Origin: Candidatus Lokiarchaeum ossiferum
Lineage (GTDB): Archaea > Asgardarchaeota > Lokiarchaeia > Sigyniarchaeales > Promethearchaeaceae
DNA length: 32,000 nucleotides
Direction of reading: 5' to 3'
Assembly (NCBI GenBank): GCA_025839675.1
Contig: CP104013.1
Span: 90,001-122,000 of the forward strand
Below are positions 2,431-28,362 of this stretch, piece after piece. The notes below the pieces were generated by a model. That model had not been told where the DNA came from. It did no database searches and was given only the letters and a program-made list of their open reading frames with translations. The number at the start of each line of letters is the position of its first letter. The first letter of the stretch is position 1. The position numbers were made by a program, and so were the translations under genes.

Positions 2431-2480
2431 GTGATAATTAATTTAATGAACTCAATAAGAAAAAACTTAGGAATTTGATT

Positions 2481-3281
2481 TTATATCATTTCTACCGAAA
2501 AAATGCAAGCTTTATCTCCATGAGCAATACATGATGTTTCTTTAGCTTTAATTGTCATGTCAGCAAGTAACTCATGTTGTAGGAACCCTTCAATAAATCC
2601 TTCGATAAATTTGCACGAAAAGTTATCATTTTTAATTCCTCGACAAACCGGACATAGGTTTATTTCAATCTCTAAGTTTTCTTCGGTAAACTCATTTACA
2701 TGATTTATTGATATTAGATCTAATTCCTTCCGTAATTTCTTCTTTAATTGTTTTTTAGTTTTAATGTTACGTGCTCTAACTTGACCTGCTTTAAAACCAA
2801 TTAACTTCATAACATTTGGTTCGAATCTATCTTGAAATTGTCGAATTACCTTTATCACATGCTTGGGAAAATCCTTTGAGATATAGAGTTGAGTGAATTC
2901 TGAATAAACGATTTCATCAACATTTTTGGCAAAAGGTTCAAAAATCTGGGTATCTCCATTCCAATTCTTTATATTTTGACCGAATTGCTCATAAAATTGT
3001 TCAGAAATCTTTTTTAGAGATATTTCAACGAAATTATCTTCCTTACTTTCTTCTACAATCCCAACAACAATGATATCCTGATTAGATGAAATTAAAACTC
3101 GATGATCTCCAGTTTCGAAATGAGTTATTTGCCCAATTTTTAACTCCTTAGTAAAAAGCGAAATTGCTGAAATCATTCCACTAAACAAAACACCATTCAT
3201 CGCAATAGTTTTTGTAGTAAATGATCTGTGGAGAAGCAAAAATGAAGACCCTTTTTGAATAATAAATATTTCGAGTAGCAT
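2481..3281 (-). CDS. Two-domain protein: N-terminal longin/roadblock-like domain plus C-terminal V4R (4-vinyl-reductase / Bet3-fold) domain
   Basis: 266 aa. The C-terminus CPVCRGIKNDNFSCKFIEGFIEGFLQHEL...ETSCIAHGDKACIFSVEMI fits the V4R Cys/Gly pattern. The N-terminus (LLEIFIIQKGSSFLLLH.., NGVLFSGMISAISLFTKEL, ITHFETGDHRVLISSNQDIIVVGIVEE, NFVEISLKKISEQFYEQFG) has the beta-beta-alpha-beta-beta-beta-alpha pattern of longin/roadblock folds. That N-terminal fold call is inferred from the pattern only. Confidence 0.7.
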   Translation of the reverse strand: MLLEIFIIQKGSSFLLLHRSFTTKTIAMNGVLFSGMISAISLFTKELKIGQITHFETGDHRVLISSNQDIIVVGIVEESKEDNFVEISLKKISEQFYEQFGQNIKNWNGDTQIFEPFAKNVDEIVYSEFTQLYISKDFPKHVIKVIRQFQDRFEPNVMKLIGFKAGQVRARNIKTKKQLKKKLRKELDLISINHVNEFTEENLEIEINLCPVCRGIKNDNFSCKFIEGFIEGFLQHELLADMTIKAKETSCIAHGDKACIFSVEMI

Positions 3282-3316
3282 GTATGGATCAAATTCCTTT
3301 CATAATATTTGTTGAC

Positions 3317-3652
3317 TTATTCTTCTCCCATCATAAATTGCGTAAATTTGAACACTAATATTAGAGATAGGGCAAATAATGAAAACCCAACGATTAATAA
3401 TATTGACATAACTGATTTAAAGAGTTCATAATTATCCATCCAATAAAATTCTGAAATCAAATCCATAAATGCAGATATTGTCCCCATCGAAATGGCAAGA
3501 ATCATTAATGGAAATCCTTTGGAAGCGAAAATTTTGTTCTTCTTTTTAGCATAAAATGCCATAACTAAGATGAAGACAAATCCTAAAAGGGATAATCCTT
3601 CTAAAATTGCATCCAACCAATTAATTTCTGGGGCAGGGGTCATAAAGATCAT
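3317..3652 (-). CDS. Small 3-TM membrane protein (paralog B)
   Basis: 111 aa with three hydrophobic helices. It shares the motifs FYAKKKNKIFASKGF and FMDLISEF and an acidic C-terminus (GEE) with the upstream 125-aa ORF. Its ATG overlaps the upstream stop (ATGA at 3649-3652). Confidence 0.7.
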   Translation of the reverse strand: MIFMTPAPEINWLDAILEGLSLLGFVFILVMAFYAKKKNKIFASKGFPLMILAISMGTISAFMDLISEFYWMDNYELFKSVMSILLIVGFSLFALSLILVFKFTQFMMGEE

Positions 3653-4026
3653 TCTTCTTTACCCTCCCATAATTCCATTCCATATTTTGCAATTTTGTAA
3701 AAGGCAAATCCCACTATGAATAAACCTAAAAAGGAAAAGATGGCATCTAACATATCAAAAAGGGTGTATACAAATACCGTTTCACCATCAATTTTTTTGG
3801 TGACTAAAGTATCTAATAAATCAAAGAAGAAATGTAAGGTAATGAAGGTAAATCCTATGAATAATTCAATAAATCCTTTTTTTGTGAATTTAGGGTAGTT
3901 TTTTCGTAAATAGACTAATGCAAATACGTTCGAAATGGCCGCTAGAATAATAATTAATTCAATTATCATCGTCGTTAATTCTGATGCATCTCGTAATTGC
4001 TGAATTGTATCCCACTGAATTACCAT
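3649..4026 (-). CDS. Small 3-TM membrane protein (paralog A)
   Basis: 125 aa with three hydrophobic helices. Motifs VYLRKNYPKFTKKGF and FFDLLDTL and an acidic C-terminus (GKEE) parallel the downstream paralog. A TATA-like TTTAAAAA lies about 25 nt upstream. Confidence 0.7.
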   Translation of the reverse strand: MVIQWDTIQQLRDASELTTMIIELIIILAAISNVFALVYLRKNYPKFTKKGFIELFIGFTFITLHFFFDLLDTLVTKKIDGETVFVYTLFDMLDAIFSFLGLFIVGFAFYKIAKYGMELWEGKEE

Positions 4027-4050
4027 TATGACTTACTTATTTTTTTGTGT

Positions 4051-4058
4051 TTTTTAAA
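4051..4058 (-). promoter_or_regulatory. TATA-box-like TTTAAAAA upstream of the two-membrane-protein/V4R operon
   Basis: The minus strand reads AGTTTAAAAAACAC. There are 24 nt between the element and the ATG at 4026, so a leaderless or very short-leader mRNA is plausible. The AT-rich background makes this weak. Confidence 0.3.
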
Positions 4059-4129
4059 CTTCCCTTACACTTAAATAAATAAAATACAGTTCACGAGATA
4101 TAACAAAAGGAACAAATTTCTATTTTGTT

Positions 4130-4149
4130 TAATAAATAAATTAAAAAAA
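4130..4149 (-). terminator. T7 run immediately after the AOR stop codon (archaeal oligo-T terminator)
   Basis: The minus strand reads TAA-TTTTTTT-AATTTATTTATT. On the plus strand this is A7 at 4143-4149. Confidence 0.4.
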
Positions 4150-6312
4150 TTATTGAAGAGGCAGAATTACTTCAATTAGTTCAGGTAAGTCCATACCAAT
4201 TTTCTTCAAATGTTCAATTGTTGGAACTCCATTAGAATTCCAGCCTCTTCGCTTATAGACTGCATCTGTAAGTTTTTCATATTGCTCTAATCGATATTTT
4301 CTTACAATTGCAATTTTTTCTGCGGTGGTTTTTTTAGCAGGATCTACGTTCATTAACTCTTGTAATTGTTTATCATACCGATCTTGGCGGGAAAGATATT
4401 CTTCTTCAGTGACAGGACCTGCTGCACGATATGGAACGGCATCATTCTTCCGAAGACCTTTGCCCAAACGAATATTGAAAATTCGTTGAAAATTATAAAC
4501 TCGTTCGGATTGCAAAATTAATTCTTCCCGAGATAATGGTTTTCCTGTAACTCCTTCGAAGATCCACCGATAATTTTCAACGTGTTCAGGAACTTTGGCT
4601 GCTTCTTGAGGTTCATAATTTTTATTGCTTGCAGGAGTAATATCATTCCAAGGCAATTTACATAATCCCATAAGTCCAAACCACGTTCTAAACATTGGGA
4701 AGTAATGAAGGGCTTCTGCTTTATCTTCAAAGGATGGAATTTGATTATTTACCATATCCATGAAAATTAACCACGCTTCATCGTGTTGTGGGCCTTTATT
4801 GGTTAAACCATATCCACCTTGTTGAGCTAGTGATTCTTTGCTTTGATATTCAGAATATTCTAATCCCTTTTGTTCCATCCCGATATCTTCCATGAACTCT
4901 AAGTCTCCGCCATATTCTTTCGCAAAGATTTGTTTCATTTTATGTGTTCCTTGGCCTGCAATTTTACCGAATCCTTCTCCACGAGACATTTGGTGAAGTA
5001 ATTTTAATGCATCTTGAGAATTTCCAAACTTTAAATCCAAACCTCCAGTGATTTCTTTATTCAAGATTCCAGCTTCATAACATTCCATTATGAAAGCAGT
5101 CATAGTGGCAAAGGAGATGATATCAATACCATATGTATCACAGTAGAAATTGGCTTCCATAACAAATTGTGGATCAAAACATCCCATATTTGCCCCTAAA
5201 CCTGCAGCATTTTCATATTCCGGACCATCCACAGTTACTTTGTGTCCTTTATATGGTCCCGAAAGCAATTCAAAATTATCGGCTGCTTTTGCACAAGACA
5301 TAGAACATCCATACCAGCATCCATCAGGTAAATTTTGTGACAGAAATTTATCCCGAAATACGTTAGATTCAATATTCTTGGTATTTTTATGGGCTCCATA
5401 CTTGAAATTGTGGGTCGGTAAAAGATCATATTGATCCATGACTTCAATGATGTTAGCTGTTCCAACTTGTCTCATTCTGCATTGATCATTATCGAATTTT
5501 TCAATTTCTCGGTGTAATCGTAATCCCGCTTTATTTAACAATTCAATTTTTGCAGGATGATTAAGATTACCTTTGACACCTTTAAATTTAATGACTAAGG
5601 CTTTAATGTGCTTATCCCGAAATACTGTTCCTATACCTCCACGTCCTGCTTGTTTTATTCGGGGTACTTTACGTCGAAGATCATAAAATGAAAAATTCAA
5701 CATTCCAATAAGTGTATGTTCTGCTGCTGAACCAGCACAAACTACTGCGACGTTCCGTTTGTCTTTCTCATCTTCCGCATACATTTCAGTTAATTGTTCA
5801 CATAAAATATGAGCATCATGAGATTCCAAGGGTGCTTCTTCAATTTGAACAGTGCCATTATTTCCATCAAGGACAATAATAACATCTTTCTCTGCTTTTC
5901 CTTGAAGTTCAAGGGCATCAAAGCCAGAAAATTTAAGATAAGGTCCAAAATACCCTCCAACATTGCTATCAATCACAATATCCGTCAAAGGGGAAATTGA
6001 GACGATAAGCGATTTTCCTGAGCCTGGATATTGGGTAATTCCACAAACGGGACCAGTTCCTATGATGATTTCATTCTCAGGATCATTCCATTTCGTATTG
6101 GGGGATACCGCATCCCATAAATAGCGAAGTCCGAATCCTTTTCCTCCAATGAACTTATCTTTCATTTCTTGGGTAATTGGCTTGGATTTTATTGTATTAT
6201 CAGATACATTCACATACAATGTGCGATTATTATATCCTTTTTCAATGGAACCAAGATCATAATTCCATTTATTAAGTAATTTATGATTTTCTTTTAATTT
6301 TTGTACATCCAT
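4150..6312 (-). CDS. aor: Aldehyde:ferredoxin oxidoreductase family (tungsto/molybdopterin) enzyme, long 720-aa form
   Basis: N-terminal AOR pattern: GYNNRTLYVNVSD..FIGGKGFGLRYLW..NEIIIGTGPVCG..SGKSLIVSISPLTD. C-terminal-domain pattern: PEYENAAGLGANMGCFDP..NFYCDTYGIDIISF..ECYEAGIL and RGWNSNGVPT. The cluster Cys block is DGCWYGCSMSC, with LMGLCKLPW further on. A GAGGA Shine-Dalgarno sits 6 nt before the ATG, and a T7 run follows the stop directly. Confidence 0.92.
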   Translation of the reverse strand: MDVQKLKENHKLLNKWNYDLGSIEKGYNNRTLYVNVSDNTIKSKPITQEMKDKFIGGKGFGLRYLWDAVSPNTKWNDPENEIIIGTGPVCGITQYPGSGKSLIVSISPLTDIVIDSNVGGYFGPYLKFSGFDALELQGKAEKDVIIVLDGNNGTVQIEEAPLESHDAHILCEQLTEMYAEDEKDKRNVAVVCAGSAAEHTLIGMLNFSFYDLRRKVPRIKQAGRGGIGTVFRDKHIKALVIKFKGVKGNLNHPAKIELLNKAGLRLHREIEKFDNDQCRMRQVGTANIIEVMDQYDLLPTHNFKYGAHKNTKNIESNVFRDKFLSQNLPDGCWYGCSMSCAKAADNFELLSGPYKGHKVTVDGPEYENAAGLGANMGCFDPQFVMEANFYCDTYGIDIISFATMTAFIMECYEAGILNKEITGGLDLKFGNSQDALKLLHQMSRGEGFGKIAGQGTHKMKQIFAKEYGGDLEFMEDIGMEQKGLEYSEYQSKESLAQQGGYGLTNKGPQHDEAWLIFMDMVNNQIPSFEDKAEALHYFPMFRTWFGLMGLCKLPWNDITPASNKNYEPQEAAKVPEHVENYRWIFEGVTGKPLSREELILQSERVYNFQRIFNIRLGKGLRKNDAVPYRAAGPVTEEEYLSRQDRYDKQLQELMNVDPAKKTTAEKIAIVRKYRLEQYEKLTDAVYKRRGWNSNGVPTIEHLKKIGMDLPELIEVILPLQ

Positions 6313-6327
6313 TTTAATTCCTCACAA

Positions 6328-6714
6328 TTAGAATTCTTCTATAAAAATTGCTCCCGTTGGGCATTCCTTCACACAAATTCCACAAGCAACACATTTAAAT
6401 GGCTCTAATAATGCATCATGTTGAAACATTGCATTTTCTGGACAAGCGGCAACACACATTAAACAACCAACACAATCCTTCTTTCGAATTCGATAGATAC
6501 CTTTTTTATCTTGATAAATGGCTTCAACAGGGCATACTTCGGCACACCTACCACATTGAGTGCAAGTAATAATCGTTTTACTCTCATCATCATTCACTTT
6601 TATACGCAATGATGCTTTTAAAGAATTAACTTCCTTAAAATAGAGCTTAGAGCATGCATCTTCACAAGCATGACACGCCGTGCACAAATCTTCTTTCTTG
6701 GCTAATCTTTTCAA
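6328..6714 (-). CDS. Polyferredoxin, four CxxCxxCxxxC motifs (up to 4x[4Fe-4S]); likely electron-transfer partner of AOR
   Basis: 128 aa with motifs CTACHACEDAC, CTQCGRCAEVCP, CVGCLMCVAACP and CVACGICVKECP. The TTG start is preceded by GGAGGT at a 9-nt spacing (6724-6729). There are 15 nt between its stop and the AOR start. Confidence 0.9.
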   Translation of the reverse strand: MKRLAKKEDLCTACHACEDACSKLYFKEVNSLKASLRIKVNDDESKTIITCTQCGRCAEVCPVEAIYQDKKGIYRIRKKDCVGCLMCVAACPENAMFQHDALLEPFKCVACGICVKECPTGAIFIEEF

Positions 6715-11229: not shown

Positions 11230-12294
11230 TTAGTTAAAAGTGGTTTTAGCCTTCAATTCTATGTACTTATTTAATCTCATCTCGTATGTGAAAAGTTTAA
11301 CCACGTATGCTACAATTTTTAGGATAGAACCAAAAATTATGAAATACAATATCCATTTTGCAATGAATGAAGCATTCCATCCCCATTTAAACACACTTGA
11401 AAAAACTTGCAAAGCTTCAGGATCGGCAAGCATATTTCTTGAAAGGGGAATATAGAAGTAACTAATGAGAATTGTTAGAATGAAAAATATCCTTTGGGCA
11501 ATAACTCTTTGCATTCCAGCAAAAACTTGAGCAAGTTTAATGAGAGCCCCGCATAAATCTAAAATACCCCAGAAAATAATAATGCTCAGGAAGGCTGGGG
11601 TAAAATTGAGGTTCAATTCCTGGAAAGGTTGGATGATGAAAATTATTGCCCAAATTATTTCCCAAATGCCACTTGATAATAGATGCTTAGTATCTAAAGG
11701 TAATTTTTCGTCCCAATTGATATAATGACGACTTTTGTTCTTCTTCCCATGATGATGTTCTCTATGATATCTCTCTCGATGCTTTTTGCCTTCTTCTTTT
11801 AAATCACTGGGTAGGAAACCTTCCCATGATAATGCGATAAAAATAATGGAGATGCTAAGTAAAATGGTTAAAAATGCGGACCATAAGTTGTATCCTGTAG
11901 TGAATACATCCCAAAATGGTTGAGAATTTCGAATTATGTAAATGATCGAAATTATTAGTATACCTATCATACAGATTCCAATACCGCCAATAACTTTCTT
12001 GTAATACGGCCACCATTCTTTGCTGATAAAAATATGCGGTGTCCCTCGTTTGCGATATTCTTTAGCAATAGTATCTGGAGTTCCCATTGATTGAATCGCT
12101 TGATAAAGATGTGATTCTGAAACAACTTCTTCTTGAGCTAAATCTTCCGCTTTATCCCAGATATGTTCTTCTATCTCATTAATTATACTTTGTCTTTCTT
12201 TGGGATTCTCTTTTAACCAACCAGGTAGTTTTTCTTCGATTTGATGTAAATATTCGTTTACTATAATTTGATTTTCATTTTTTTGAGTATTCAT
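11230..12294 (-). CDS. HAAS/DUF1700-type membrane sensor partner of PadR (N-terminal helical domain plus multiple TM helices)
   Basis: The track ORF runs to 12360, but the ATG at 12294 forms an ATGA overlap with the PadR stop. The protein then begins MNTQKNENQIIVNEYLHQIEEKLPGWL..RQSIINEIEEHIWDKAE..MGTPDTIAKEY, a typical DUF1700/HAAS N-terminus. At least 6 hydrophobic helices follow, plus a basic His-rich loop KKHRERYHREHHHGKKNKSRH. Confidence 0.8.
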   Translation of the reverse strand: MNTQKNENQIIVNEYLHQIEEKLPGWLKENPKERQSIINEIEEHIWDKAEDLAQEEVVSESHLYQAIQSMGTPDTIAKEYRKRGTPHIFISKEWWPYYKKVIGGIGICMIGILIISIIYIIRNSQPFWDVFTTGYNLWSAFLTILLSISIIFIALSWEGFLPSDLKEEGKKHRERYHREHHHGKKNKSRHYINWDEKLPLDTKHLLSSGIWEIIWAIIFIIQPFQELNLNFTPAFLSIIIFWGILDLCGALIKLAQVFAGMQRVIAQRIFFILTILISYFYIPLSRNMLADPEALQVFSSVFKWGWNASFIAKWILYFIIFGSILKIVAYVVKLFTYEMRLNKYIELKAKTTFN

Positions 12295-12845
12295 AAATGC
12301 CCCTCCATATCTTCTTCTCCACGGAGAATACCTTCTAAATTGAAACCACATACTTCGCAAAATTTAATTTGCTTATCAAGGATGTCAATCTTGTTGGCAC
12401 AGTTAGGACAAAAAAAGTAATTTTCTTCTGGTAAACTTACTGTTATATCAAATAATCCTGCAATCGATTCAATAAGTTTGGAGAAAAAACCGTTTAAATG
12501 ATTGGAAATTTTCGCTCCCTCATTGGTAATGAAATAATATTTTCTTCGCCTTCCTTGATCCGAAATTCGAGCTTCCGCATCAATTAAACCTTCTTTTACA
12601 AGTTTTTTCAATAAAGGATACAATGTCCCTTCTTCAATAACTAACATATTTTTCGAAGATTTTTCAATTTCTTTCAACATCTGGTAGCCATAAATTCCGG
12701 TAGGACTGAAATCTTCAATAATTTTTAGAATTGTTAATGTAGAAATTCCCCGTAGTATTTCAGACTCCGATTTTTCCAAATAATTCCGGAAGGATTCAGA
12801 ATTGATAAGAGCTTCAGGTTGAAATTGTTTTATTCGTTTAATCAT
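12291..12845 (-). CDS. PadR-family winged-helix transcriptional regulator with C-terminal zinc ribbon
   Basis: 184 aa. The PadR core is ILKIIEDFSPTGIYGYQMLKEIEKSS..VIEEGTLYPLLKKLVKEGLIDAEARISDQGRRRKYYFITNEGAK. The C-terminus carries CPNC...(14)...CEVC. Confidence 0.88.
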   Translation of the reverse strand: MIKRIKQFQPEALINSESFRNYLEKSESEILRGISTLTILKIIEDFSPTGIYGYQMLKEIEKSSKNMLVIEEGTLYPLLKKLVKEGLIDAEARISDQGRRRKYYFITNEGAKISNHLNGFFSKLIESIAGLFDITVSLPEENYFFCPNCANKIDILDKQIKFCEVCGFNLEGILRGEEDMEGHL

Positions 12846-14998: not shown

Positions 14999-16051
14999 TC
15001 ATAAAATTACGACTTGATCATTTGAAAGTGGAAAGTTGAATAATTGATGATAAACTTCTTCCATTTCTGGCCATGTTATTTGATCATGTATTTTTTCATA
15101 AATTTCGGGCGTTAAACAACAATATTCCAGAAATCCAAATTGTAGATTGGTAGAAAAATTTTCCCTTAAGAAATAATATTGTTCATGGTCAGAAATATTT
15201 TGTTCCTGTAATGCAATATGGACTCGATTAAATTGTTCTATAGGAAGTTTTCGCGTAACTCCTTCAAATTGTCCCTGAAATTCCACATTTTTCTGCCAAA
15301 CTTGTAATAGAATCATGTTTCCGTTACTATTCTGTAACTCCATCATTTTTAATTGGGGAGAAAGATCATTCTTATTGCACTTCACTTCTGTTTCTATGTA
15401 ATATTTAACAAGTTGATCAAATAAAATGCCATAATTTGAAATGGAAGTGCATTCTTCCAGCAGAATTTCATCCAGTTTCGAAGTTTGGAATAAATTGTAC
15501 CGATTAAAATCATCTGGTGAAATTTTTTTCAATTTTAAAAGGAAACTCACGACATTTTGAATCCGTATGAAGAATGGTTCTAACTTTAAAATAGTTTGAA
15601 ATACACCATATAAAAAATCATACCGTTCTTCTATTATAGGGAAGACTCTCTCTACTAATTTTATTGCATAATCAAAATTTTGATCATTACTTCTATGCTT
15701 AATATAAGTTTCTACATCGTCTTGCATATCTTCAGGCGATCTTTCCCCATGAAGTAAGATAAACTCTATTTGTAGATAAGTCGGATAATCCAATTCAATA
15801 TATTTCGTGATTTTCGACTGAATTTTTGCCATCCGACGAGGATTCGCTGATCTTTTTTTTAATCTAAAGAGAAGTAATTTCACCTTTATCTGATGGAATT
15901 TCCAATTCATTTTTCTCCACATTTTTTCCCAGAAGTGAAGTATAATAAGATAGCAGAAAAAACCTCCACCGGCCCAGATAATATCACCATAAGTAATAGG
16001 TGGGTATGTGAATAATATCATAAGACCAAAAATCCAATAATTACATACCAA
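14999..16051 (-). CDS. Hypothetical protein with N-terminal hydrophobic segment(s)
   Basis: 350-aa ORF. The track start is a TTG, and the first ATG is at aa 11. The N-terminus is hydrophobic (IFGLMILFTYPPI.., GGGFFCYLIILHFW) and the rest is helical and charged. I recognise no family. Confidence 0.55.
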   Translation of the reverse strand: MVCNYWIFGLMILFTYPPITYGDIIWAGGGFFCYLIILHFWEKMWRKMNWKFHQIKVKLLLFRLKKRSANPRRMAKIQSKITKYIELDYPTYLQIEFILLHGERSPEDMQDDVETYIKHRSNDQNFDYAIKLVERVFPIIEERYDFLYGVFQTILKLEPFFIRIQNVVSFLLKLKKISPDDFNRYNLFQTSKLDEILLEECTSISNYGILFDQLVKYYIETEVKCNKNDLSPQLKMMELQNSNGNMILLQVWQKNVEFQGQFEGVTRKLPIEQFNRVHIALQEQNISDHEQYYFLRENFSTNLQFGFLEYCCLTPEIYEKIHDQITWPEMEEVYHQLFNFPLSNDQVVIL

Positions 16052-16392
16052 TACGAAGTTTAGGAGTAATTTCGTTTTTTTGCTGGATTCTTGAATTCTT
16101 TACACCTCATGATTTTCAAAGGAACTTTATTATGCATACCACAATAATTCTTTTACTTAAGGTTTCGGGAAAAAATTCCGATCATTCAGAATAACTACAT
16201 CATTTTTACTTTTAGCATGATAATTTTTGAAAGTTTCGCCAAAGATCTTATCTTAATGGGAATTTATTGGAGAAAAGTCTTTAATGAAATTCAGATTGGT
16301 TCACGGATGGTTATTTGTTTGAATCCATCTAGAACTTGTTTGAACTTTTTCTTGCAAAAATTAAAAAACACGGATAAAATGAAAATTAATAC

Positions 16393-16656
16393 TTACCAAT
16401 CTTCTTCTTCGTAATCATCATCAAAGATTTCTTCATCTTCTTCAATCTCATCAATGGTTTTTTCAATCAACGATCTTTGCTTAACCGTTAATTTTTCTAT
16501 TTGATGATCATCAATTAAATGCTCTTCTGTGTATTTTATCAATTCATCGAGAGTATCTGCGTAGGCTTCCCAATCGCAGTCATTTCCCAAGTTTGCGCAA
16601 CAGAAATAATATACCATGATAGTTTCATTCCAGCAATTTTTGTGATTATGACTCAA
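16393..16656 (-). CDS. DUF1059-like small protein with strongly acidic C-terminal tail
   Basis: 87 aa. YYFCCANLGNDCDWEAYADTLDELIKYTEEHLIDDHQ resembles the DUF1059 pattern (f.C.dlG.dCdf.a.ge...l......H). The tail is IDEIEEDEEIFDDDYEEEDW*. Confidence 0.6.
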   Translation of the reverse strand: MSHNHKNCWNETIMVYYFCCANLGNDCDWEAYADTLDELIKYTEEHLIDDHQIEKLTVKQRSLIEKTIDEIEEDEEIFDDDYEEEDW

Positions 16657-16747
16657 CTTAATATGAAAAGTGAGTACTTATATCTTAACGCCTCTCTGTA
16701 TTTATATTCATTCATCTGCTACTGAATGAAATGTTTTCGATAACTAG

Positions 16748-17377
16748 CTATGTGATCACAGTTATCAAAGCCTGGGAGTTAACCAATTTAAGAAAAAAAT
16801 GGGCCGATATATTAATTATCAAAAGAAAAAATACTTCAAAATGAAGTAAATTGCCCATTTTTGCCATATGGCTTTTGAAAATACTACAACAAAAATCTGT
16901 TCTATTCAAAGCTTCGAATAATTCATTCAAAACTTCTCGAATCAAGATCTCCAACTGATAACTATAAACTAACTGCGAATCCCAGAGTGTTTCTTGGTCT
17001 CTTCGGACCAAATCAACGAGTTGCCATTGGATCAACCATAGAATATGCTCCTCATCGTAATGGTTTTTGAGATAATTCTGGATTAAATATCGGGCCCCTC
17101 CGTCTGTTATCCCATAGACTTCCAAAGCTTCGAAGGACACTTTTTTTCTTTGTTCCTTCCATAAGTCAGGAGGGAATTTATGATAAAGCGGTTGTAAAAA
17201 ACGAAACTGCACTTTGCTTTCCATTGAATCGTGATAATTCCTATGAATTTGGCGGAGGAGCGATTCGAGGATTTTAATTATGATGACCGTGAAATTCTCG
17301 GGAAAAATTTCCGGCCAATCAATGGGGCGTTGAAACCGTTTATAATCGTTAAGTTCAAGGGAGGGCAAATATTTCAT
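16748..17377 (-). CDS. Hypothetical protein (209 aa), third gene of the STAND-NTPase cassette; hydrophobic C-terminal tail
   Basis: ATG start, 15 nt after the stop of the upstream ORF. The body is helical with a W/Y/L-rich core, and the C-terminus is VFFLLIINISAHFFLKLV. I recognise no family. Confidence 0.6.
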   Translation of the reverse strand: MKYLPSLELNDYKRFQRPIDWPEIFPENFTVIIIKILESLLRQIHRNYHDSMESKVQFRFLQPLYHKFPPDLWKEQRKKVSFEALEVYGITDGGARYLIQNYLKNHYDEEHILWLIQWQLVDLVRRDQETLWDSQLVYSYQLEILIREVLNELFEALNRTDFCCSIFKSHMAKMGNLLHFEVFFLLIINISAHFFLKLVNSQALITVIT

Positions 17378-17392
17378 AGGGTTTTGTCACTC

Positions 17393-17950
17393 TTACTCTT
17401 TTTTAATTTCAGTTGAATAAAGAATTTTCAATCCTTCCAGATAGGATTTCATTTTTGCTAGGAATAAATCCATAGTGTTAGAGAACTCAGGTGAGGATTC
17501 GTTCAATGTGTGGTCCAAATTAATTGAACAAATTTCTTTATAATGGCGAGATTCTTCTCCAAAAATTTCTGCAATAATTGACTTTGCATTCTCCAGATAA
17601 AAGATTTTTTTAGTTTTCCCTGTTGATTTTTGAATGGTATTGATATACGAAGTTATAATCAAGCGTTTGTCCTCATAGTCATCACCCATCATTTTAATTG
17701 CGATTGTGTTTAATTCTTTGAATTTAATCATTGTTTTTTTGTTTAATTGAGCAAAATATTCATTTCTTCTTATAGTTTTTACCAAATTATTAATTTCAAG
17801 GGCATCAATTTTAATCTGGCATTCATGAGCTCGTAGAACTGAATTGATCGCATTTTTTATTTTCTTTTTTGCTCGTCTTCCTTCAGTAAAAGATTGATCC
17901 CAAGCATATTCCAACCCACCTAACGGTGTACTTATTCCTATCTTTCCCAT
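17393..17950 (-). CDS. Hypothetical protein (185 aa), second gene of the STAND-NTPase cassette
   Basis: ATG start, 33 nt after the stop of the NTPase gene. The protein is predicted helical with a basic N-terminal stretch (GRRAKKKIKNAINS). I recognise no family. Confidence 0.6.
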   Translation of the reverse strand: MGKIGISTPLGGLEYAWDQSFTEGRRAKKKIKNAINSVLRAHECQIKIDALEINNLVKTIRRNEYFAQLNKKTMIKFKELNTIAIKMMGDDYEDKRLIITSYINTIQKSTGKTKKIFYLENAKSIIAEIFGEESRHYKEICSINLDHTLNESSPEFSNTMDLFLAKMKSYLEGLKILYSTEIKKE

Positions 17951-17983
17951 TGTGCATCATTGTTTTATAGTTAATATATTTAC

Positions 17984-20302
17984 TTATAATGTTATCGTTG
18001 GTAGATCTAACTTTATCTTCCTACAGCTTCCTCCTTTTACAATATTTTTTACTTGAAGATCATAGCGGGATTCTAATTTTGAAAAAACAGGAAGTAATTG
18101 ATTAATCATTGCTCTATCTGATGATTCAATTTCTGTATCAATATCTAAAACTGATGTCAGATATTTTCGATGGCTATAAATTATTCTATTAAGTTCGAGA
18201 TGAGTCAAGCAGAATTTATTCTGATATCTTTCAAACCAATCCTTGGGATAGGTTTTTTTCATTGTCTTTTTTACCGCCTCTATCCCATCCAAATGCTGAT
18301 TTGCAATACTTTGTAAAAATTTCAAATCTTGGTAAACATGAAAGGGTTTTATATTTGTGAAATCGGTATCACTATATTTCTTTGACATCGATTCAAAAAT
18401 AGATTTTACAATAATTGTATATTTATGAGTGGTTTGAAAACCCATGATATATCCCTTGGGCATAATCAAAATATGATCCGTCATCTTAATCACCTGTTTT
18501 TGGTTTTTGATATTTTCTTGGATAATCTCAATCATGTCAGTTGTTAAATAACCATTTTCCTTATTGCAAAGATCGGCCAAGGATTTAGTGATTTCTTCTG
18601 AATCATTAAATCCAATTTGAGCAAAATCCGTGACCAAAGCTTGCACTTGCACAAGATTGGCAGTAAATTCGGATAAGGGAGGGATAGTTTTATCAAAATC
18701 AAGATCTTGATCGCCTACACTTTTCTTTAGAAGATAGACAAGGATTAAGTACTTCAAGAAGCAATTATGAGCTTTATCTGATTTATATTTATAGAAATCG
18801 ACTATATTAATTATTTTGATTTTATTTTTTTTATTTGAAATCCACGAATAAATTAAAGATTCAAGTTTAACTGCTCGTTTTTTTATGATTTGGTAGACAT
18901 TTTTCTTAGATTTCTTGGGATCACTAGATGTCATGATATAATCAAGAAAATTACATATATCCACGTTGAAATTTCGAATATCTAAGTTTAAAATGGAGAA
19001 TAATCGTTCTTTATTAAAAAGATAGGAAACTTTATTCATTAAAAGAAATAATACATTCCATATCGAAAGGAAGATGTTAAATTCTTCTACATTGAATGTC
19101 TGCGGCAATTGTTTTTTTGTGTATGAAAATAATTGATCAAAACGAAAGCTAATGTCTACTTTTTTGTTGTACTCATTAAAATCACGAATTTTTATGTCAT
19201 AAAAGGGATATTTATTCCGAATCCAACTAATAAATGCATATCTATACCGTTTAAATAGCAATTTCGCAATAAATTCTTTGTCATTAAAATATTGCTCCTT
19301 TTTGATCTTGGCCAATTTACTTTCTGTTAAATTCTCAAAATATTCTTCTGGAGGCTCGAAATGATTTAAGTGATAATCATATAAAATATGCGTATGTGCA
19401 TCGTTTTCTATTTGATCTCCCTTTTTCGGAAATGAGTCTACCAAACTCTCGGGTCGAAGTGTTCCCACGCAATAACCGCTCATATCAAGGGATCGATGAG
19501 TTTCTAATATCGACTGAAGATAAAATCTTTGAAATTTCAACGGGAGTGAATCTAAATTATCAAAGAATAAAATAAATTTTCTATAATCGCCTTCCTCACA
19601 TGAAAATTGTGAAATTCCGGAGATTAAATGCTTAACGGATAAATTTTTTTTTACTTTTTTTAAAATTAGATAAAAATCATCTCTAAAACAAGTAAATAGA
19701 AACTTTTCGAAAATAGGCACTTTATTAGAATTTCTTCGATAGCATTTACTGAAATTTTCACAGAGTCTTGTTTTACACTTTTTGGAGTAAAGTTCAAAAG
19801 CGATTTCTTTTTGTGGGAAAAAGTCTTTTCCATTCAATATATGCTTGCTAAGTTTGAAAAAGGAATCGAGATTAGAATAAAATTGGTTTTTAATTTCTTC
19901 CTTTACAATTTTTTTAAAATCACGCTTAAAACCATCAATATCTAGAGGTTCCAAGTATTGGTGTAGTCTATCTTTGTACTCAGGTCGCTGAAAATCAACA
20001 TAACAAAAATGTACAATTTGCTTGATTTTCTTCTCTAGTAGGATTTTGTGGGTAGTAGTTGTTTTTCCACTCCCTGCGTATCCTAATATTAATATCGGTG
20101 CATTTTGAAACCCAATATTATCCGCGATAATATCTTCTTGACTTGATTTAACATATAATTCGTCATAAAAATCCTTATAACTGAGTTCATCAGGTTTTTT
20201 GTCCAATTCATCAAATTTTGTTAAAAAATATTTAGTGATATAATTCTTAACTTCATAGATTTGAGCTTGATCTGCTTTCATAAATAATCTTTCAGTATCC
20301 AT
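17984..20302 (-). CDS. P-loop NTPase, NACHT-like STAND family (772 aa) with a long C-terminal helical region
   Basis: Walker A is ILILGYAGSGKTTT (K80), Walker-B-like is KFILFFDNLDS (aa 242-252), and CVGTLRPES (aa 278-286) resembles the NACHT TSRP motif. About 480 aa of K/N/F/Y-rich helical sequence follow. ATG start. Confidence 0.75.
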   Translation of the reverse strand: MDTERLFMKADQAQIYEVKNYITKYFLTKFDELDKKPDELSYKDFYDELYVKSSQEDIIADNIGFQNAPILILGYAGSGKTTTTHKILLEKKIKQIVHFCYVDFQRPEYKDRLHQYLEPLDIDGFKRDFKKIVKEEIKNQFYSNLDSFFKLSKHILNGKDFFPQKEIAFELYSKKCKTRLCENFSKCYRRNSNKVPIFEKFLFTCFRDDFYLILKKVKKNLSVKHLISGISQFSCEEGDYRKFILFFDNLDSLPLKFQRFYLQSILETHRSLDMSGYCVGTLRPESLVDSFPKKGDQIENDAHTHILYDYHLNHFEPPEEYFENLTESKLAKIKKEQYFNDKEFIAKLLFKRYRYAFISWIRNKYPFYDIKIRDFNEYNKKVDISFRFDQLFSYTKKQLPQTFNVEEFNIFLSIWNVLFLLMNKVSYLFNKERLFSILNLDIRNFNVDICNFLDYIMTSSDPKKSKKNVYQIIKKRAVKLESLIYSWISNKKNKIKIINIVDFYKYKSDKAHNCFLKYLILVYLLKKSVGDQDLDFDKTIPPLSEFTANLVQVQALVTDFAQIGFNDSEEITKSLADLCNKENGYLTTDMIEIIQENIKNQKQVIKMTDHILIMPKGYIMGFQTTHKYTIIVKSIFESMSKKYSDTDFTNIKPFHVYQDLKFLQSIANQHLDGIEAVKKTMKKTYPKDWFERYQNKFCLTHLELNRIIYSHRKYLTSVLDIDTEIESSDRAMINQLLPVFSKLESRYDLQVKNIVKGGSCRKIKLDLPTITL

Positions 20303-20917: not shown

Positions 20918-22477
20918 TTATGCGCATATTTGCATCCTCGCTTTTTTTTTTATCCAAAAACTAGTGATTCCAATTAAAATTAGAATCAAAGCTGCAGGAT
21001 ATGTGGGAATACTAAGATCAAAAGGATTTGAGATCTTTTCCTCAAAAAATCCACCATCAGAAATGGACCATCCAAATTCATTAATGATGTGTTCTCGTGC
21101 AGCTTTTGCAGATTCTGTACTATATTGAGCTTCTCCTGCTGAAAATTGAACGTTTTGTTGTAATTGACGTTTTCCCCATCCTTCCAATAAAATATCATAA
21201 TTTGTGGTTGATAATGGTGCTCCACGGAACATATGTCCCATATTCGTCACATTCGAAATATCCCAATTCCCTATAGGTTGATCGAAGGCAGAGTTTGCAA
21301 ACATAAACATCATATCTGTCACACTTGAAACGTCCCAATTTTCTAATGGTTGATTGAAGTGATAAGCATCAGCAAACATACCATTCATATTAATGACCTT
21401 CGAAACATCCCATCTTCCTATATCTTGATTAAATTGGGAGGCAGAATCGAACATTACGGACATAGATGTTACCTCCGAAACATCCCATCCTCCAATATCT
21501 TGATTGAAGTTCTTAGCATAGCTGAACATACCTCCCATTTCTGTAACATTTGAAACATCCCACCTTGATATATCTTGATTAAAATTTTTTGCACTTTGAA
21601 ACATTCCACCCATGTTTGTAACAAATGAAACATCCCAGTCTCCAATATAAAAATTGAATGATGTTGCCCCTGCAAACATTTGTGACATATCTGTGACACA
21701 AGAAACATCCCAGTCTCCAATTGGCTTATTAAAATTCTCCGCTCCAGAATAAATCCATCCCTCTTCACTAGGACTTCCTCCAAACATTTGTGACATATCA
21801 ACGACACGAGAAACATCCCAACTTCCGATATCCTGATTGAATGTTTTTGAATTCATAAACATTCTTCTCATATCTGTTACATGGGAAACATTCCATTGAT
21901 TTAGATTTCCTAAATGTCCTAAATTCTCGCAATCATAAAACATCTCATTGAGTGTGGTTGTATCGGTGAGATTCAATGCATCTGATGCTTTAAGTACTAA
22001 ATTCTTGCATCCTTTGAAGTATCCTCCGGTATTTCCTATTTGTAAACACCCCCATTGCGTGATTTCAATCAGTTTGAGCTCATCACCATTTGCTGGAAAA
22101 TCCCAACCATTAATTATTCCACTGATTTCGATTGTAAAAATCCCTCCAGTAGTATAAGTATGTGTAATTTCTGCTTGATTCCATATAGTAATACTGCTGT
22201 TACTCCCATCACCCCATGCAACCTCAAAATTATAATGTCCAATATTTGAGAGTGGTAATTTCACTTGGTTCGATTCACTATTTCCATCAAGTACGGTATT
22301 CCACACCGATACAAATGTATTTGAACCGTAGGAAGACTTGATGGATTTCATTTTAATGCATTTGTAATTTAATTCTTCATTCGTGGTTGTCGATTCTATA
22401 CTCGCTAATATTCCGATACAGAATAAACTTGTTACCATTAAATATCGTAATGTATTCATGTTGCACTGTTTCATCAT
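20918..22477 (-). CDS. Secreted/surface protein with DUF285 / BspA-type 25-26-residue repeats, N-terminal signal peptide and C-terminal TM anchor
   Basis: 519 aa. The signal-like N-terminus is LRYLMVTSLFCIGILASIES. There are nine repeats of the form FNQ(D/P)IG.WDVS.VT.M..MF. The C-terminus is PTYPAALILILIGITSFWIKKKAR. Confidence 0.85.
   Translation of the reverse strand: MMKQCNMNTLRYLMVTSLFCIGILASIESTTTNEELNYKCIKMKSIKSSYGSNTFVSVWNTVLDGNSESNQVKLPLSNIGHYNFEVAWGDGSNSSITIWNQAEITHTYTTGGIFTIEISGIINGWDFPANGDELKLIEITQWGCLQIGNTGGYFKGCKNLVLKASDALNLTDTTTLNEMFYDCENLGHLGNLNQWNVSHVTDMRRMFMNSKTFNQDIGSWDVSRVVDMSQMFGGSPSEEGWIYSGAENFNKPIGDWDVSCVTDMSQMFAGATSFNFYIGDWDVSFVTNMGGMFQSAKNFNQDISRWDVSNVTEMGGMFSYAKNFNQDIGGWDVSEVTSMSVMFDSASQFNQDIGRWDVSKVINMNGMFADAYHFNQPLENWDVSSVTDMMFMFANSAFDQPIGNWDISNVTNMGHMFRGAPLSTTNYDILLEGWGKRQLQQNVQFSAGEAQYSTESAKAAREHIINEFGWSISDGGFFEEKISNPFDLSIPTYPAALILILIGITSFWIKKKARMQICA
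21255..21895 (-). repeat. Intragenic tandem coding repeat (about 75-nt unit, 9 copies) encoding the WDVS..VT.M repeats of the DUF285/BspA-type protein
   Basis: The plus-strand motif GAAAC(A/G)TCCCA and close variants starts at 21255, 21327, 21401, 21477, 21552, 21627, 21702, 21810 and 21885. The spacings are 72, 74, 76, 75, 75, 75, 108 and 75 nt. Confidence 0.85.
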
Positions 22478-25935: not shown

Positions 25936-28362
25936 GTGGCACATCAATCTTCGGAACAACAAAATTTAAGTTTTCACAACCAACAAAGAATAATTTCGAA
26001 AATACCGGTGCAAGTAGAGAATACTTATTCCGCGGCACAAAATTTAATCAAAATCATTACTGATGTGTCTACTAGCATTATTAAACAGCTTGAAGCAATT
26101 GACGTAGTTGTAAATGGGATTGAAAATTATTCTGTGTTGGCCGAAGAGGTGCATTCACAAACCGAAAGTTCTATGACTTTTGCTCATAAGACTGTAGAAG
26201 TTGCGCATTCGGGTCAAACCGCCACAGACGAAACCATGAATGCTATTGGCAACATTTCAACTTCCGTTGAAAACACGAGAAATGAAATTGATACATTACA
26301 AGAAAAAACGGTAAATATTGGAAATATTTTAAAAAATATGAAAGATATTGCTCAACAAACTAAAATCTTATCTATCAACGCAGCAATTGAAGCAGCACGT
26401 GCAGGGGATGCGGGATATGGATTTGCAGTTGTAGCAGATGAAGTTGGAAAATTAGCAAAAAACAGTGATTTAGCTGCCGAAGAAATCAAAACGATATTAA
26501 TGGATATTGATGTGAGTATTAAAAGAACACTTACTGCAATGAATGACAGCACTAAAAAAGTGAATGATGGAGAGCAAGTGGTGAAGCAAACAGGAATTGT
26601 ATTCGAAGATATTATTAATTCAGTCGAAAATACTCTTGAGGTATTTACCGAAATTAATGAAGGTTTGCATCAACAAAATCAGAATTTAGTTCAAATAATG
26701 CGTTCGACTGAAATTATGGATTCTGAATCTAAAAAAGTATTAATTTTAAGTGACATGGCTTTAAGTAATACTGAAAACACCAAGTCATCATTAACAGAAT
26801 TAGCAAAGATCACAACCCAATTATCAGTAATATCAGAAAGAACGAATCAATTTTTAAATCAAACAGATGTTATCACAGAAAAAGTGCGATTAACAACCCA
26901 TATCCAAAGGGAATTATTAACTTTAGATCCCGCAATTTCCAACGAGATAGAAGCGAACAGAATATTGGCCAATATTCATTCTGGATTAATTACTCTAAAC
27001 GCAGATTTAACAATTTTGCCTGGAGTTGCTAAAAGTTGGTATTTAAAAGAAGATAATTTAACATGGGTGTTTTCCCTTCGAAAAAATGTGAAATTCCATC
27101 ATGGAAGGATGGTTCAAGCGAGTGATGTAAAATTTTCTTTCGAAAGAGTATTAAGTCCTCAATTAAATTCACCTTGCGCATGGTTTTTATATCAAATTGA
27201 AGGAGCGGAAGCCTATCATGATGGGCGCACAAAATCTGTATCAGGAATTACTATAAATAATCAATACCAAATCGAATTGAAATTAAAAAGTCCATATTCA
27301 GGTTTCTTACTAAATTTGGCTCACCCAACATGTTCTATTCTCCCACGCGAAGAAGTTTTAAAGAACCATTTCATTGGATGTGGAAGCTTTTTATTAGATC
27401 AAATTGAAGACCGTTTCTATTTATTGAAGTGTTTTAAGGATTATTACGGTGGTTCTGCATATGCAGATGAAGTTTTAGTTGAATATAATAATCCCAATCT
27501 TGTTGACGATTTAATTGATGGTAAATATGATTTTGTTGATCTGAGAGATTCCACAATAATTGCAAAATTACAAGAAAAGACTCAGCATATGAAAATAGTA
27601 ACCAGTGATTCAATCTCGACGAATTTCCTTACTTTCAATTTTAACTCGAAAAATCCCTTAATTCATGACAAGGATATTAGACTTGCCATAAATTATTCTA
27701 TAGATAAAGCAACAATTAATAAAGAATTGTTATTGGGTCTTGTTGATGAATGTAAAGGTATTTTTCCCCCAAGTATGATCAACGATCTGACATTGCAAGG
27801 GTATAGATATAACGTCACGAAAGCAAGATCTTTGGTACAAGGAAAGAAACACTTGATTGACGGCCATCCTTTAAAAATATTAATTCGGGAAACTGATATT
27901 TTGCATAAAAATCAAAATTTTCTTGTTTTAGAACAGATACGTCAAAATTTGAAACAAATTGGAATTTCATCCCAATATGTTGAGGTTCAATCTGCAAAAT
28001 ATTATACTCGAGCAACTTCACAATTAGGCGATCTGTGTTTCATTGGATGGTTTGCAGACACGGGAGATATGGATAATTATCTCGAGCCTTTACTGAACTA
28101 TTATAATGAAAACAATTTTGGATTTTACAAAAATGAAGAGGTGATGCAGGGTATAATTGATGCTAAGAAAATGATTATTCCTGCTAAACGAATTCAAAAA
28201 TATAAGGAAATCCAAAAATTAATTTTAGCGGATGTTCCTTGGATTTATTTATATCATACGAAAATCATTAGCGCTATTCGGAAGAAGGGAATTGACAATG
28301 TGCAATACTTCCCGACTGGAGCATTAAAAATGGACAATATCTTGATTACTGATACACCTTAG
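25936..28362 (+). CDS. Fusion protein: N-terminal methyl-accepting chemotaxis protein (MCP) signalling domain plus C-terminal ABC-type substrate-binding protein family 5 (DppA/OppA-like) domain; no TM helix
   Basis: 808 aa with a GTG start. The MCP hairpin-tip consensus is IAQQTKILSINAAIEAARAGDAGYGFAVVADEVGKLAKNSDLAAEEI, within about 300 aa of heptad-like coiled coil. It is followed by the SBP_bac_5 pattern ILPGVAKSWYLKEDNLTWVFSLRKNVKFHHGRMVQASDVKFSFERVLSP, then LRLAINYSIDK and WIYLYH. I see no hydrophobic segment or signal peptide. Confidence 0.85.
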   Translation: MAHQSSEQQNLSFHNQQRIISKIPVQVENTYSAAQNLIKIITDVSTSIIKQLEAIDVVVNGIENYSVLAEEVHSQTESSMTFAHKTVEVAHSGQTATDETMNAIGNISTSVENTRNEIDTLQEKTVNIGNILKNMKDIAQQTKILSINAAIEAARAGDAGYGFAVVADEVGKLAKNSDLAAEEIKTILMDIDVSIKRTLTAMNDSTKKVNDGEQVVKQTGIVFEDIINSVENTLEVFTEINEGLHQQNQNLVQIMRSTEIMDSESKKVLILSDMALSNTENTKSSLTELAKITTQLSVISERTNQFLNQTDVITEKVRLTTHIQRELLTLDPAISNEIEANRILANIHSGLITLNADLTILPGVAKSWYLKEDNLTWVFSLRKNVKFHHGRMVQASDVKFSFERVLSPQLNSPCAWFLYQIEGAEAYHDGRTKSVSGITINNQYQIELKLKSPYSGFLLNLAHPTCSILPREEVLKNHFIGCGSFLLDQIEDRFYLLKCFKDYYGGSAYADEVLVEYNNPNLVDDLIDGKYDFVDLRDSTIIAKLQEKTQHMKIVTSDSISTNFLTFNFNSKNPLIHDKDIRLAINYSIDKATINKELLLGLVDECKGIFPPSMINDLTLQGYRYNVTKARSLVQGKKHLIDGHPLKILIRETDILHKNQNFLVLEQIRQNLKQIGISSQYVEVQSAKYYTRATSQLGDLCFIGWFADTGDMDNYLEPLLNYYNENNFGFYKNEEVMQGIIDAKKMIIPAKRIQKYKEIQKLILADVPWIYLYHTKIISAIRKKGIDNVQYFPTGALKMDNILITDTP

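Follow-up and report, generated by a model that had tools for sequence, protein, structure and literature searches.

Asgard archaea encode many proteins of the longin, roadblock and Bet3 folds, for which there is almost no evidence on the place or the partners of their action. One such protein, of 266 aa, is encoded beside two small membrane proteins, here named TM-A and TM-B, in a 32-kb stretch of the Candidatus Lokiarchaeum ossiferum genome (contig CP104013.1, positions 90,001 to 122,000; "the window" below is this whole stretch). It joins an N-terminal longin-type domain to a C-terminal V4R domain and is referred to as longin-V4R. The closest described protein is a Heimdall longin-TRAPPC3 fusion, MBD3190748.1, modelled with AlphaFold2 by Tran et al. 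(2024, Commun Biol, Fig. 9g and Supplementary Fig. 10g; PMC10933270). Likened to longin-V4R from the published model only, this Asgard protein displays the same order, an N-terminal longin followed by a C-terminal TRAPPC3/V4R fold, and a longin plus V4R architecture like that of MBD3190748.1 is present in NHJ01325.1 (P0258), which is related to the window protein and carries a Heimdall label. Neither the main text nor the supplement of that study mentions the MK-D1 orthologue WP_147662013.1, the Loki and Helarchaeota spread of the family or any membrane-protein neighbours, and the searchable literature contains no mention of the MK-D1 locus tags or of a V4R/longin operon with membrane proteins. 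The longin-V4R architecture is already published; as far as the literature could be searched, how widely the family is spread and that it has obligatory membrane partners appear to be new findings.

The eukaryotic TRAPP core (Bet3/TRAPPC3 plus the longin-like Bet5, Trs23 and Trs20) is built from the same two folds as longin-V4R. TRAPP is composed of separate subunits, acts as a Rab guanine nucleotide exchange factor (GEF) and has no integral-membrane partners; the Asgard module, in contrast, carries both folds in one chain, has no Bet3-family sequence match, includes a predicted zinc site, lacks a linked GTPase and comes with dedicated transmembrane (TM) partners. Homology of V4R and Bet3 is established, according to Podar et al. 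(2008) as cited in Tran et al. (PMC10933270). A dedicated anchor likewise keeps a longin/roadblock module at the membrane in Ragulator-LAMTOR on lysosomes and in the case of the SRX domain of SR-alpha, which sits on membrane-anchored SR-beta; LAMTOR, the Rag C-terminal domain and SRX are all among the Foldseek matches of the longin-V4R N-terminal domain. Unlike TM-A and TM-B, the anchors of Ragulator and SR consist of a lipidated protein or of a single-TM-helix GTPase; these platforms bind GTPases and have no V4R domain. The phenol sensors MopR, PoxR and DmpR and the archaeal MsvR and MetOD1 proteins belong to the Pfam V4R family and share the Cys-Glu-Cys-Cys spacing of longin-V4R. Their V4R domains are coupled to AAA+/helix-turn-helix (HTH) or REC modules and serve transcription regulation, whereas longin-V4R has a longin domain as its partner domain and membrane proteins as its genomic partners. 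V4R domains have a structural zinc site and either bind ligands, such as phenols in MopR and PoxR, or respond to redox state, as in MsvR; longin domains are docking platforms.

Comparison of 19 independent loci disclosed that all three genes are adjacent and on the same strand in 18 of them (the window, L001-L010, L012, L013, L018 and L020-L023; the exception is L019), under Lokiarchaeial, Helarchaeota, Hodarchaeota and Heimdallarchaeota labels. This recurrence answers the proposal, in the initial annotation of the window, that the three-gene arrangement be followed across Asgard genomes; the open reading frames (ORFs), the overlap of the two membrane-protein genes, the 35-nt gap and the motifs which that annotation quoted are all present in the sequence. 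The order TM-A, TM-B, longin-V4R is kept in nine GTDB-species genomes (L001-L009) with flanks unrelated between lineages, in a Hodarchaeota-labelled locus (L010), a divergent metagenomic locus (L012) and a Heimdall-labelled locus (L018), and in four loci found from the TM-A side (L020-L023), where the third gene of L023 breaks off at the edge of the contig after 215 aa, has no Pfam record and is assumed to be longin-V4R. A permuted order, longin-V4R, TM-A, TM-B, is present in the Helarchaeota locus L013. Genes in the module loci overlap or have short spacers. In the window, the TM-B start codon and the TM-A stop codon overlap as ATGA at 3649-3652; the spacer between TM-B and longin-V4R measures 9-104 nt in the other loci, always with both genes on the same strand. 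The flanking genes (an MFS transporter, an aldehyde:ferredoxin oxidoreductase (AFOR)/ferredoxin pair and others) differ between lineages and are thus not part of the module, and the three families share the same narrow phyletic range. The linkage exceeds chance, 18 of the 19 loci keeping the trio while their flanks turn over, and it outlasts the rearranged order in Helarchaeota. This comparative evidence strongly suggests that the three genes form a functional unit, and their spacing and synteny indicate that the module is very probably an operon.

The 266-aa protein has 32 full-length relatives with 46-81% identity. They come from Promethearchaeota (Lokiarchaeia), including WP_147662013.1 of MK-D1, from Harpocratesius and from one Hodarchaeota-labelled metagenome-assembled genome, whose copy is 51% identical to the Loki protein. 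The MK-D1 trio begins with DSAG12_00914 and continues with the next two genes downstream, of which the second encodes WP_147662013.1. A profile with distant members adds a Helarchaeota subfamily, two JGI proteins annotated as "hydrocarbon binding" and the Heimdallarchaeota-labelled NHJ01325.1.

Some loci show peculiarities of their own. L019 (GCA_030605085.1, JAUWBH010000150.1:2501-4135) is the only TM-A/TM-B pair without a longin-V4R gene behind it; the next gene (235 aa) is unrelated, and its TM-B is shortened and lacks the C-terminal F.FT.FMMGE tail conserved elsewhere, which may mark a decaying copy or hint at the tail as a docking site. In the Helarchaeota subfamily (L013:4001-5782; also L014), where the order is permuted, TM-B has an N-terminal extension of ~60 residues with extra hydrophobic segments; ~3 kb upstream of the L013 module, the opposite strand carries a gene for a small GTPase of Arf/Ras/Roc type. 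In the Promethearchaeum lineage (L001-L004), a conserved soluble ORF of 111-114 aa (MNIRDSFYITDLK...) lies directly 3' of longin-V4R on the same strand, for example at L001:6854-7198; it is absent from the window and from the other lineages.

A Pfam scan of the 266-aa protein revealed V4R (PF02830) at residues 204-264 (E 1e-8, 35.6 bits against a gathering cut-off of 31). All 26 aligned relatives match the same family, in agreement with the V4R-type C-terminus that had been read from the sequence; MetOD1 matches 21 of the 26 and ATC_hydrolase 14. V4R, MetOD1 and ATC_hydrolase have been grouped by a common Cys cluster (Galperin et al.; PMC5847659). The best NCBIfam match is to the V4R portion of MsvR (E 1.7e-8, profile positions 129-236), the full-length MsvR equivalog (NF053755) scoring 34.5 bits against a cut-off of 220, and Pfam found no HTH domain. 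The Pfam TRAPP/Bet3 family (PF04051) matches none of the 26 family members, even at E<=1.

A HMMER profile-to-PDB alignment placed C223, E248, C251 and C259 of longin-V4R on C155, E178, C181 and C189 of MopR (5kbe), with identical spacing, and the four residues are invariant in the 26 relatives and in the divergent subfamilies. We take E178 to be the fourth zinc ligand of MopR. The zinc cysteines of MopR are C155, C181 and C189 (PMC9556785). A MopR-type structural zinc site is predicted in the V4R domain from this correspondence. A further pair, C210 and C213 (CPVC), is kept in 23 of 26 close relatives as well as in the Hel, Heimdall and L012 subfamilies, the remaining three close relatives having SPFS in its place; a metal or redox site, additional or alternative to the first, could be formed by this pair.

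Two AlphaFold2 models were built, one of the full-length protein from 26 sequences (mean predicted local distance difference test (pLDDT) 81, predicted template modelling score 0.75) and one of isolated residues 1-108 (mean pLDDT 78). In the full-length model, the V4R region consists of helices H111-134, H142-150, H155-170, H176-190 and H224-234 over a four-stranded sheet, with pLDDT mostly 75-91 across residues 110-266, and reproduces the two-layer α/β Bet3-like fold of ~150 residues. Foldseek against the PDB matched this region to Bet3/TRAPPC3 (6aq3 and 1wc9; in TRAPP complexes, 2j3w, 7u05, 7kmt and 7b6d), to Thor-TRAPPC3 (7yh3) and further to MopR (5kbi, root mean square deviation (rmsd) 4.3-4.5 Å), PoxR (5frv), MJ1460 (2oso), YslB and H-NOX. 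The missing Bet3/TRAPP Pfam match, the V4R/MetOD1/MsvR-like sequence and the MopR/PoxR zinc ligands lead us to class the C-terminal domain, on sequence grounds, as a prokaryote-type V4R, with a likeness to Bet3 that is at the fold level and not specifically to TRAPPC3.

The N-terminal topology is ββαβββα in both models (DSSP: E2-9, E15-20, H30-44/46, E52/54-57, E60-67, E70-76, H79-105/106), the order of strands and helices noted earlier from the sequence alone, and an LFSG.ISA motif is conserved in helix 1. With the isolated domain as query, the best 50 Foldseek matches were all longin or roadblock-type folds, with query TM-scores (TMq) of 0.56-0.70 that were highest for true longin domains: Sec22b (1ifq/2nut, 0.68-0.70), AP-3 mu (9c59, 0.69, rmsd 2.9 Å), Ykt6 (3bw6, 0.66), VAMP7 (2vx8, 0.66) and Mon1-Ccz1 (5ldd, 0.61). 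Other matches include Rag C-terminal domains, LAMTOR, the MK-D1 Roadblock2 crystal structure, AP sigma, COPI zeta, MglC and SRX. The single chain with two folds that had been proposed, a longin-type domain followed by a V4R/Bet3 fold, is thereby recovered by AlphaFold2, Foldseek and Pfam V4R together. Of the combined longin/roadblock label, the longin half stands by topology. A roadblock assignment was rejected, as the model opens with a strand at residue 2 and lacks the N-terminal helix of the αββαβββ order; Robl_LC7 (PF03259) has no Pfam match in the 266-aa protein or its close relatives, and roadblock structures were matched by Foldseek only as a circularly related fold.

Sequence-family matches are consistent with a longin domain, though below threshold in the protein itself. 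Fuz_longin_1 scores 16-17 bits on the 266-aa protein, below the cut-off of 26.1, and is similarly sub-threshold in 14/18 and 17/26 relatives; for two Helarchaeota members, precomputed Pfam records list Fuz_longin_1 or Longin plus V4R. An exhaustive search with the N-terminal domain profile retrieved 323 proteins at E<=1e-3. When 103 of these were scanned with Pfam, 17 matched Fuz_longin_1, down to 6.5e-8, single proteins matched Longin, Clat_adaptor_s, Sybindin, Intu_longin_1, Robl_LC7 or MAPKK1_Int, and several carried Ras, Arf, Roc or Gtr1/RagA GTPase domains. Because its profile relatives include curated longin families and longin-GTPase fusions, we assign the N-terminal domain to a large Asgard longin family whose members are often fused to GTPases; confidence is somewhat lowered by the pLDDT of only 55-66 over residues 21-60. 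The same profile searched against PDB sequences returned noise only (Holliday-junction resolvase, E 0.12, and dynein). Pfam and NCBIfam revealed no further domain in the protein, that is, no DNA-binding, catalytic or transmembrane segment.

TM-A and TM-B each have three hydrophobic segments. Direct BLASTP comparison of the two is weak (E 0.002); hhalign of ten-sequence alignments of the two families gave 94.7% probability and E 6e-8 over 89 columns. This profile-level similarity identifies TM-A and TM-B as paralogs, as had been suggested from their shared motifs. Loop 1 contains 3-6 Lys/Arg and almost no acidic residues in every lineage examined, and the N-terminus and loop 2 are acidic; from this charge distribution we predict an N-out/C-in topology, in which loop 1 and the short C-terminal tails would be cytoplasmic. 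TM-A conserves E23 (TM1), KLT.KGF in its basic loop 1, H65, FDLLDT where TM2 ends, FD.LDA where TM3 begins and IA.YG...W in its C-terminal tail; E23, a KLT..G loop, H65, FD.LDT, FD.LD and the IA.YG...W tail persist from Loki to Heimdall. TM-B conserves D14/E18, K..IFASKGF in its basic loop 1, D64...E68..W71 and F.FT.FMMGE[ED] in its C-terminal tail, with D..LE, K..KGF, D...E..W and an F....G tail kept from Loki to Heimdall. The TM-A family comprises 61 clusters, all of ~120 aa and without a Pfam domain.

Neither membrane protein has a meaningful match in Pfam, NCBIfam, PADLOC or the PDB. A link of TM-A to CDF/ZitB zinc transporters, raised by a lone NCBIfam match at E 0.069 and an HxxxD-like motif, was rejected, as none of nine other members reproduced the match and the PDB gave no support. 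A GPCR helix found in the TM-A profile search of the PDB (E 0.075) was set aside as compositional, and the corresponding TM-B search returned no match. An anti-phage defence system was also rejected, PADLOC matching none of the three module proteins.

With moderate confidence, we propose that longin-V4R may be a ligand- or redox-sensing cytosolic adaptor docked on the TM-A/TM-B pair, the products of the three genes making up one membrane-associated complex. TM-A and TM-B would probably pair in the cytoplasmic membrane as a heterodimer of 3+3 helices, with their acidic N-termini and loop 2 outward and their basic loop 1 and conserved C-terminal tails toward the cytoplasm. The V4R domain would most likely be a zinc-stabilised α/β box of the MopR/PoxR/MsvR type that binds a hydrophobic small molecule or lipid, or that senses redox via its conserved cysteines. 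The longin domain would act as a standard docking platform and most likely couple the state of the V4R domain to the cytoplasmic loop and tails of TM-A/TM-B, possibly also to a further partner. Because longin-V4R is devoid of DNA-binding, enzymatic and transmembrane parts, its output would be protein-protein contact. Our analysis establishes the domain identities, the paralogy of TM-A and TM-B, their predicted topology and the conservation of the gene linkage; within the model, we infer the physical association, the ligand binding and the direction of signalling. Published observations are in line with it: Tran et al. speculated on small-molecule binding from the cavity of Thor-TRAPPC3 and came to see ligand binding as the probable function of Asgard TRAPP/V4R proteins (PMC10933270). 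Cavities of the Bet3/V4R fold hold hydrophobic ligands, namely phenols in PoxR and palmitate in TRAPPC3 (PMC10933270). The L019 locus, where the V4R gene and the TM-B tail are both missing, is anecdotal and consistent with the tail as a docking site.

Several points weigh against this docked-sensor model. The low pLDDT over longin residues 21-60 is joined by modest Foldseek E-values for the isolated N-terminal domain (6e-4 to 1e-2). Asgard proteins expressed in HeLa cells showed no membrane targeting, the longin-V4R family and its membrane partners not being among those expressed (PMC10933270). Conserved acidic and His residues lie on the outer side of the TM pair, which may consequently have an activity of its own, such as ion binding or transport, that the docking model leaves unexplained.

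These outer residues are the starting point of another reading, in which TM-A/TM-B would be a small channel, transporter or lipid-handling unit and longin-V4R its cytosolic gate or cargo acceptor, the V4R domain taking, for example, a hydrophobic molecule or lipid from the membrane as Bet3 holds palmitate. Charged or polar residues within the helices or at their outer ends (E23, H65, D69, D72, D91 and D94 of TM-A; D14, E18, D64 and E68 of TM-B) are kept from Loki to Heimdall, and the hydrophobic-ligand cavities of the V4R/Bet3 fold, together with the suggestion of "ligand transport" by Tran et al. (PMC10933270), would suit such a role. TM-A and TM-B, however, resemble no transporter or channel family, the ZitB match stands alone, the PDB profile searches are without a meaningful match, and six helices in all are small for a transporter; we regard this reading as a lesser possibility. 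It is very unlikely, in our view, that the adjacency reflects a conserved but functionally loose neighbourhood, with longin-V4R a solo soluble sensor and the membrane pair in an unrelated role. The pair without a V4R gene in L019 would fit such a neighbourhood, but the trio survives in all the other loci despite complete turnover of the flanks and the permuted Helarchaeota order, its genes overlap or lie a few nucleotides apart, and all three families are confined to one and the same narrow set of lineages.

A further reading is a role in GTPase control. Here the trio would be a membrane-anchored, TRAPP- or Ragulator-like regulator (GEF, GTPase-activating protein or scaffold) acting on a Rab/Arf/Rag-like GTPase whose gene lies elsewhere: the GTPase would be bound by the longin domain, the Bet3 fold would add a catalytic or scaffold surface, and TM-A/TM-B would fix the membrane site. 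The same two folds build the eukaryotic TRAPP core (PMC10933270), Bet3/TRAPPC3 is among the top Foldseek matches of longin-V4R, and Mon1-Ccz1, LAMTOR and Rag C-terminal domains are among those of its N-terminal domain; of the sequence relatives of this domain, one matches Sybindin and others are fused to Ras, Arf, Roc or Gtr1/RagA domains. The sequence of the C-terminal domain speaks differently, with no Bet3/TRAPP match in the family against V4R in every aligned relative and MetOD1 in most, and with a zinc-ligand pattern that is that of the bacterial sensors. A motif scan detected a small GTPase near the module in only 1 of ~19 loci, the Helarchaeota gene ~3 kb away, which can be counted in favour of this role; the other loci have no small GTPase within ~5 kb, and the window encodes none that bears canonical G1/G3/G4 motifs. 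Genomic context cannot decide the matter, as operons that combine GTPase genes with longin or TRAPPC3 genes are generally lacking in MK-D1 (Tran et al. 2024; PMC10933270), and the absent GTPase linkage is weak evidence because an Asgard GTPase seldom shares an operon with its regulators (PMC10933270). We consider the regulator unlikely, and find rather improbable a more ambitious version in which the trio would be a minimal membrane-anchored precursor of TRAPP/Ragulator-type machinery, with a heterodimeric anchor and a V4R-cavity ligand controlling an Asgard Rab/Arf/Rag-like GTPase. The initial annotation had put forward a regulatory or tethering module relevant to the origin of TRAPP; beyond fold content this gains no support, given the 0/26 Bet3/TRAPP matches, the MopR/PoxR-type zinc ligands and the near absence of neighbouring GTPase genes. 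Its alternative, a small-molecule sensor, appears better supported, and we infer from the sequence evidence that the sensor reading fits better than the TRAPP-related one.

In published work, gene context was rarely informative for such proteins and the Asgard proteins tested were not at membranes. The module is a clear exception: in genomes with Loki, Hel, Hod and Heimdall labels, longin-V4R is tied to a dedicated pair of integral membrane proteins. Two of the host organisms, Promethearchaeum syntrophicum MK-D1 and a Lokiarchaeum, are in culture, and three proteins with ~500 residues in all make a small, testable system with which to ask if membranes are where Asgard "trafficking-fold" proteins work, and if these proteins sense ligands or regulate GTPases. 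Should longin-V4R be only a prokaryote-style sensor, it would caution against reading TRAPP function from fold content.

Coordinates of the module features are collected in Table 1.

Table 1. Features of the TM-A/TM-B/longin-V4R module, in positions of the 32-kb window
Feature	Position	Strand	Basis and remarks
TM-A gene	3649..4026	-	ORF, 125 aa; membrane protein with three helices
TM-B gene	3317..3652	-	ORF, 111 aa; TM-A paralog with three helices
longin-V4R gene	2481..3281 (stop codon included)	-	ORF, 266 aa; soluble protein
Longin-type domain, residues 1 to ~106	2964..3281	-	AlphaFold2 secondary structure, Foldseek, profile search
V4R/Bet3-fold domain, residues ~110-266	2484..2954	-	Pfam, NCBIfam, Foldseek
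Pfam V4R match, residues 204-264	2490-2672	-	Pfam scan
Predicted structural zinc site, codons of C223, E248, C251, C259	2505..2615	-	Alignment to MopR, conservation
CPVC motif (C210, C213)	2643..2654	-	Conservation among relatives
Intergenic region upstream of TM-A, 123 nt, AT-rich	4027..4149	-	Read from sequence; likely promoter region
TM-B/longin-V4R spacer, 35 nt	3282..3316	-	Read from sequence
Spacer 3' of the longin-V4R stop codon, 50 nt	2431..2480	-	Oligo-T run (TTTTTT), read from sequence

A TATA-like TTTAAAAA lies ~30 nt before the TM-A ATG, in the intergenic region that we take as the likely promoter of the module. Transcription of the unit may end in the T-run spacer at the other end of the module, ahead of the next gene, which by Pfam encodes an MFS transporter unrelated to the module. 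A scan for sigma-70 promoters and intrinsic terminators, a type of scan unsuited to archaea, gave fewer sites than shuffled sequence. The longin-V4R sequence contains the motifs CPVCRG, CKFIEGFIEGFL and CIAHGDKACIF. The G+C content of the window is ~32%, and tRNA and Rfam scans of it found nothing.

Directly upstream of the module, at 4150-6714 (minus strand), are genes for a tungsten-type AFOR (720 aa) and a poly-ferredoxin with four 4Fe-4S motifs (128 aa), a pair that is not conserved beside the module in other genomes. At 11230-12845 (minus strand), a PadR-family regulator gene overlaps the gene of a HAAS-domain protein, the known PadR-HAAS two-gene sensor arrangement. The uncharacterised cluster at 14999-20302 (minus strand) encodes a 772-aa protein whose sole match, to a P-loop at residues 67-144 (SRP54/AAA_22), is weak; behind it, on the same strand, come ORFs of 185, 209 and 350 aa without a Pfam match. 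A 519-aa protein encoded at 20918-22477 (minus strand) has three DUF285 (BspA-like leucine-rich repeat) matches (E 3e-91); genes for leucine-rich repeat proteins likewise border the module in L019 and L020. The gene at 25936-28362 (plus strand) encodes an 808-aa protein in which an MCP signalling domain (90-263) stands N-terminal to a family-5 solute-binding-protein domain (360-726), the reverse of the sensor-then-signalling order usual in chemoreceptors.

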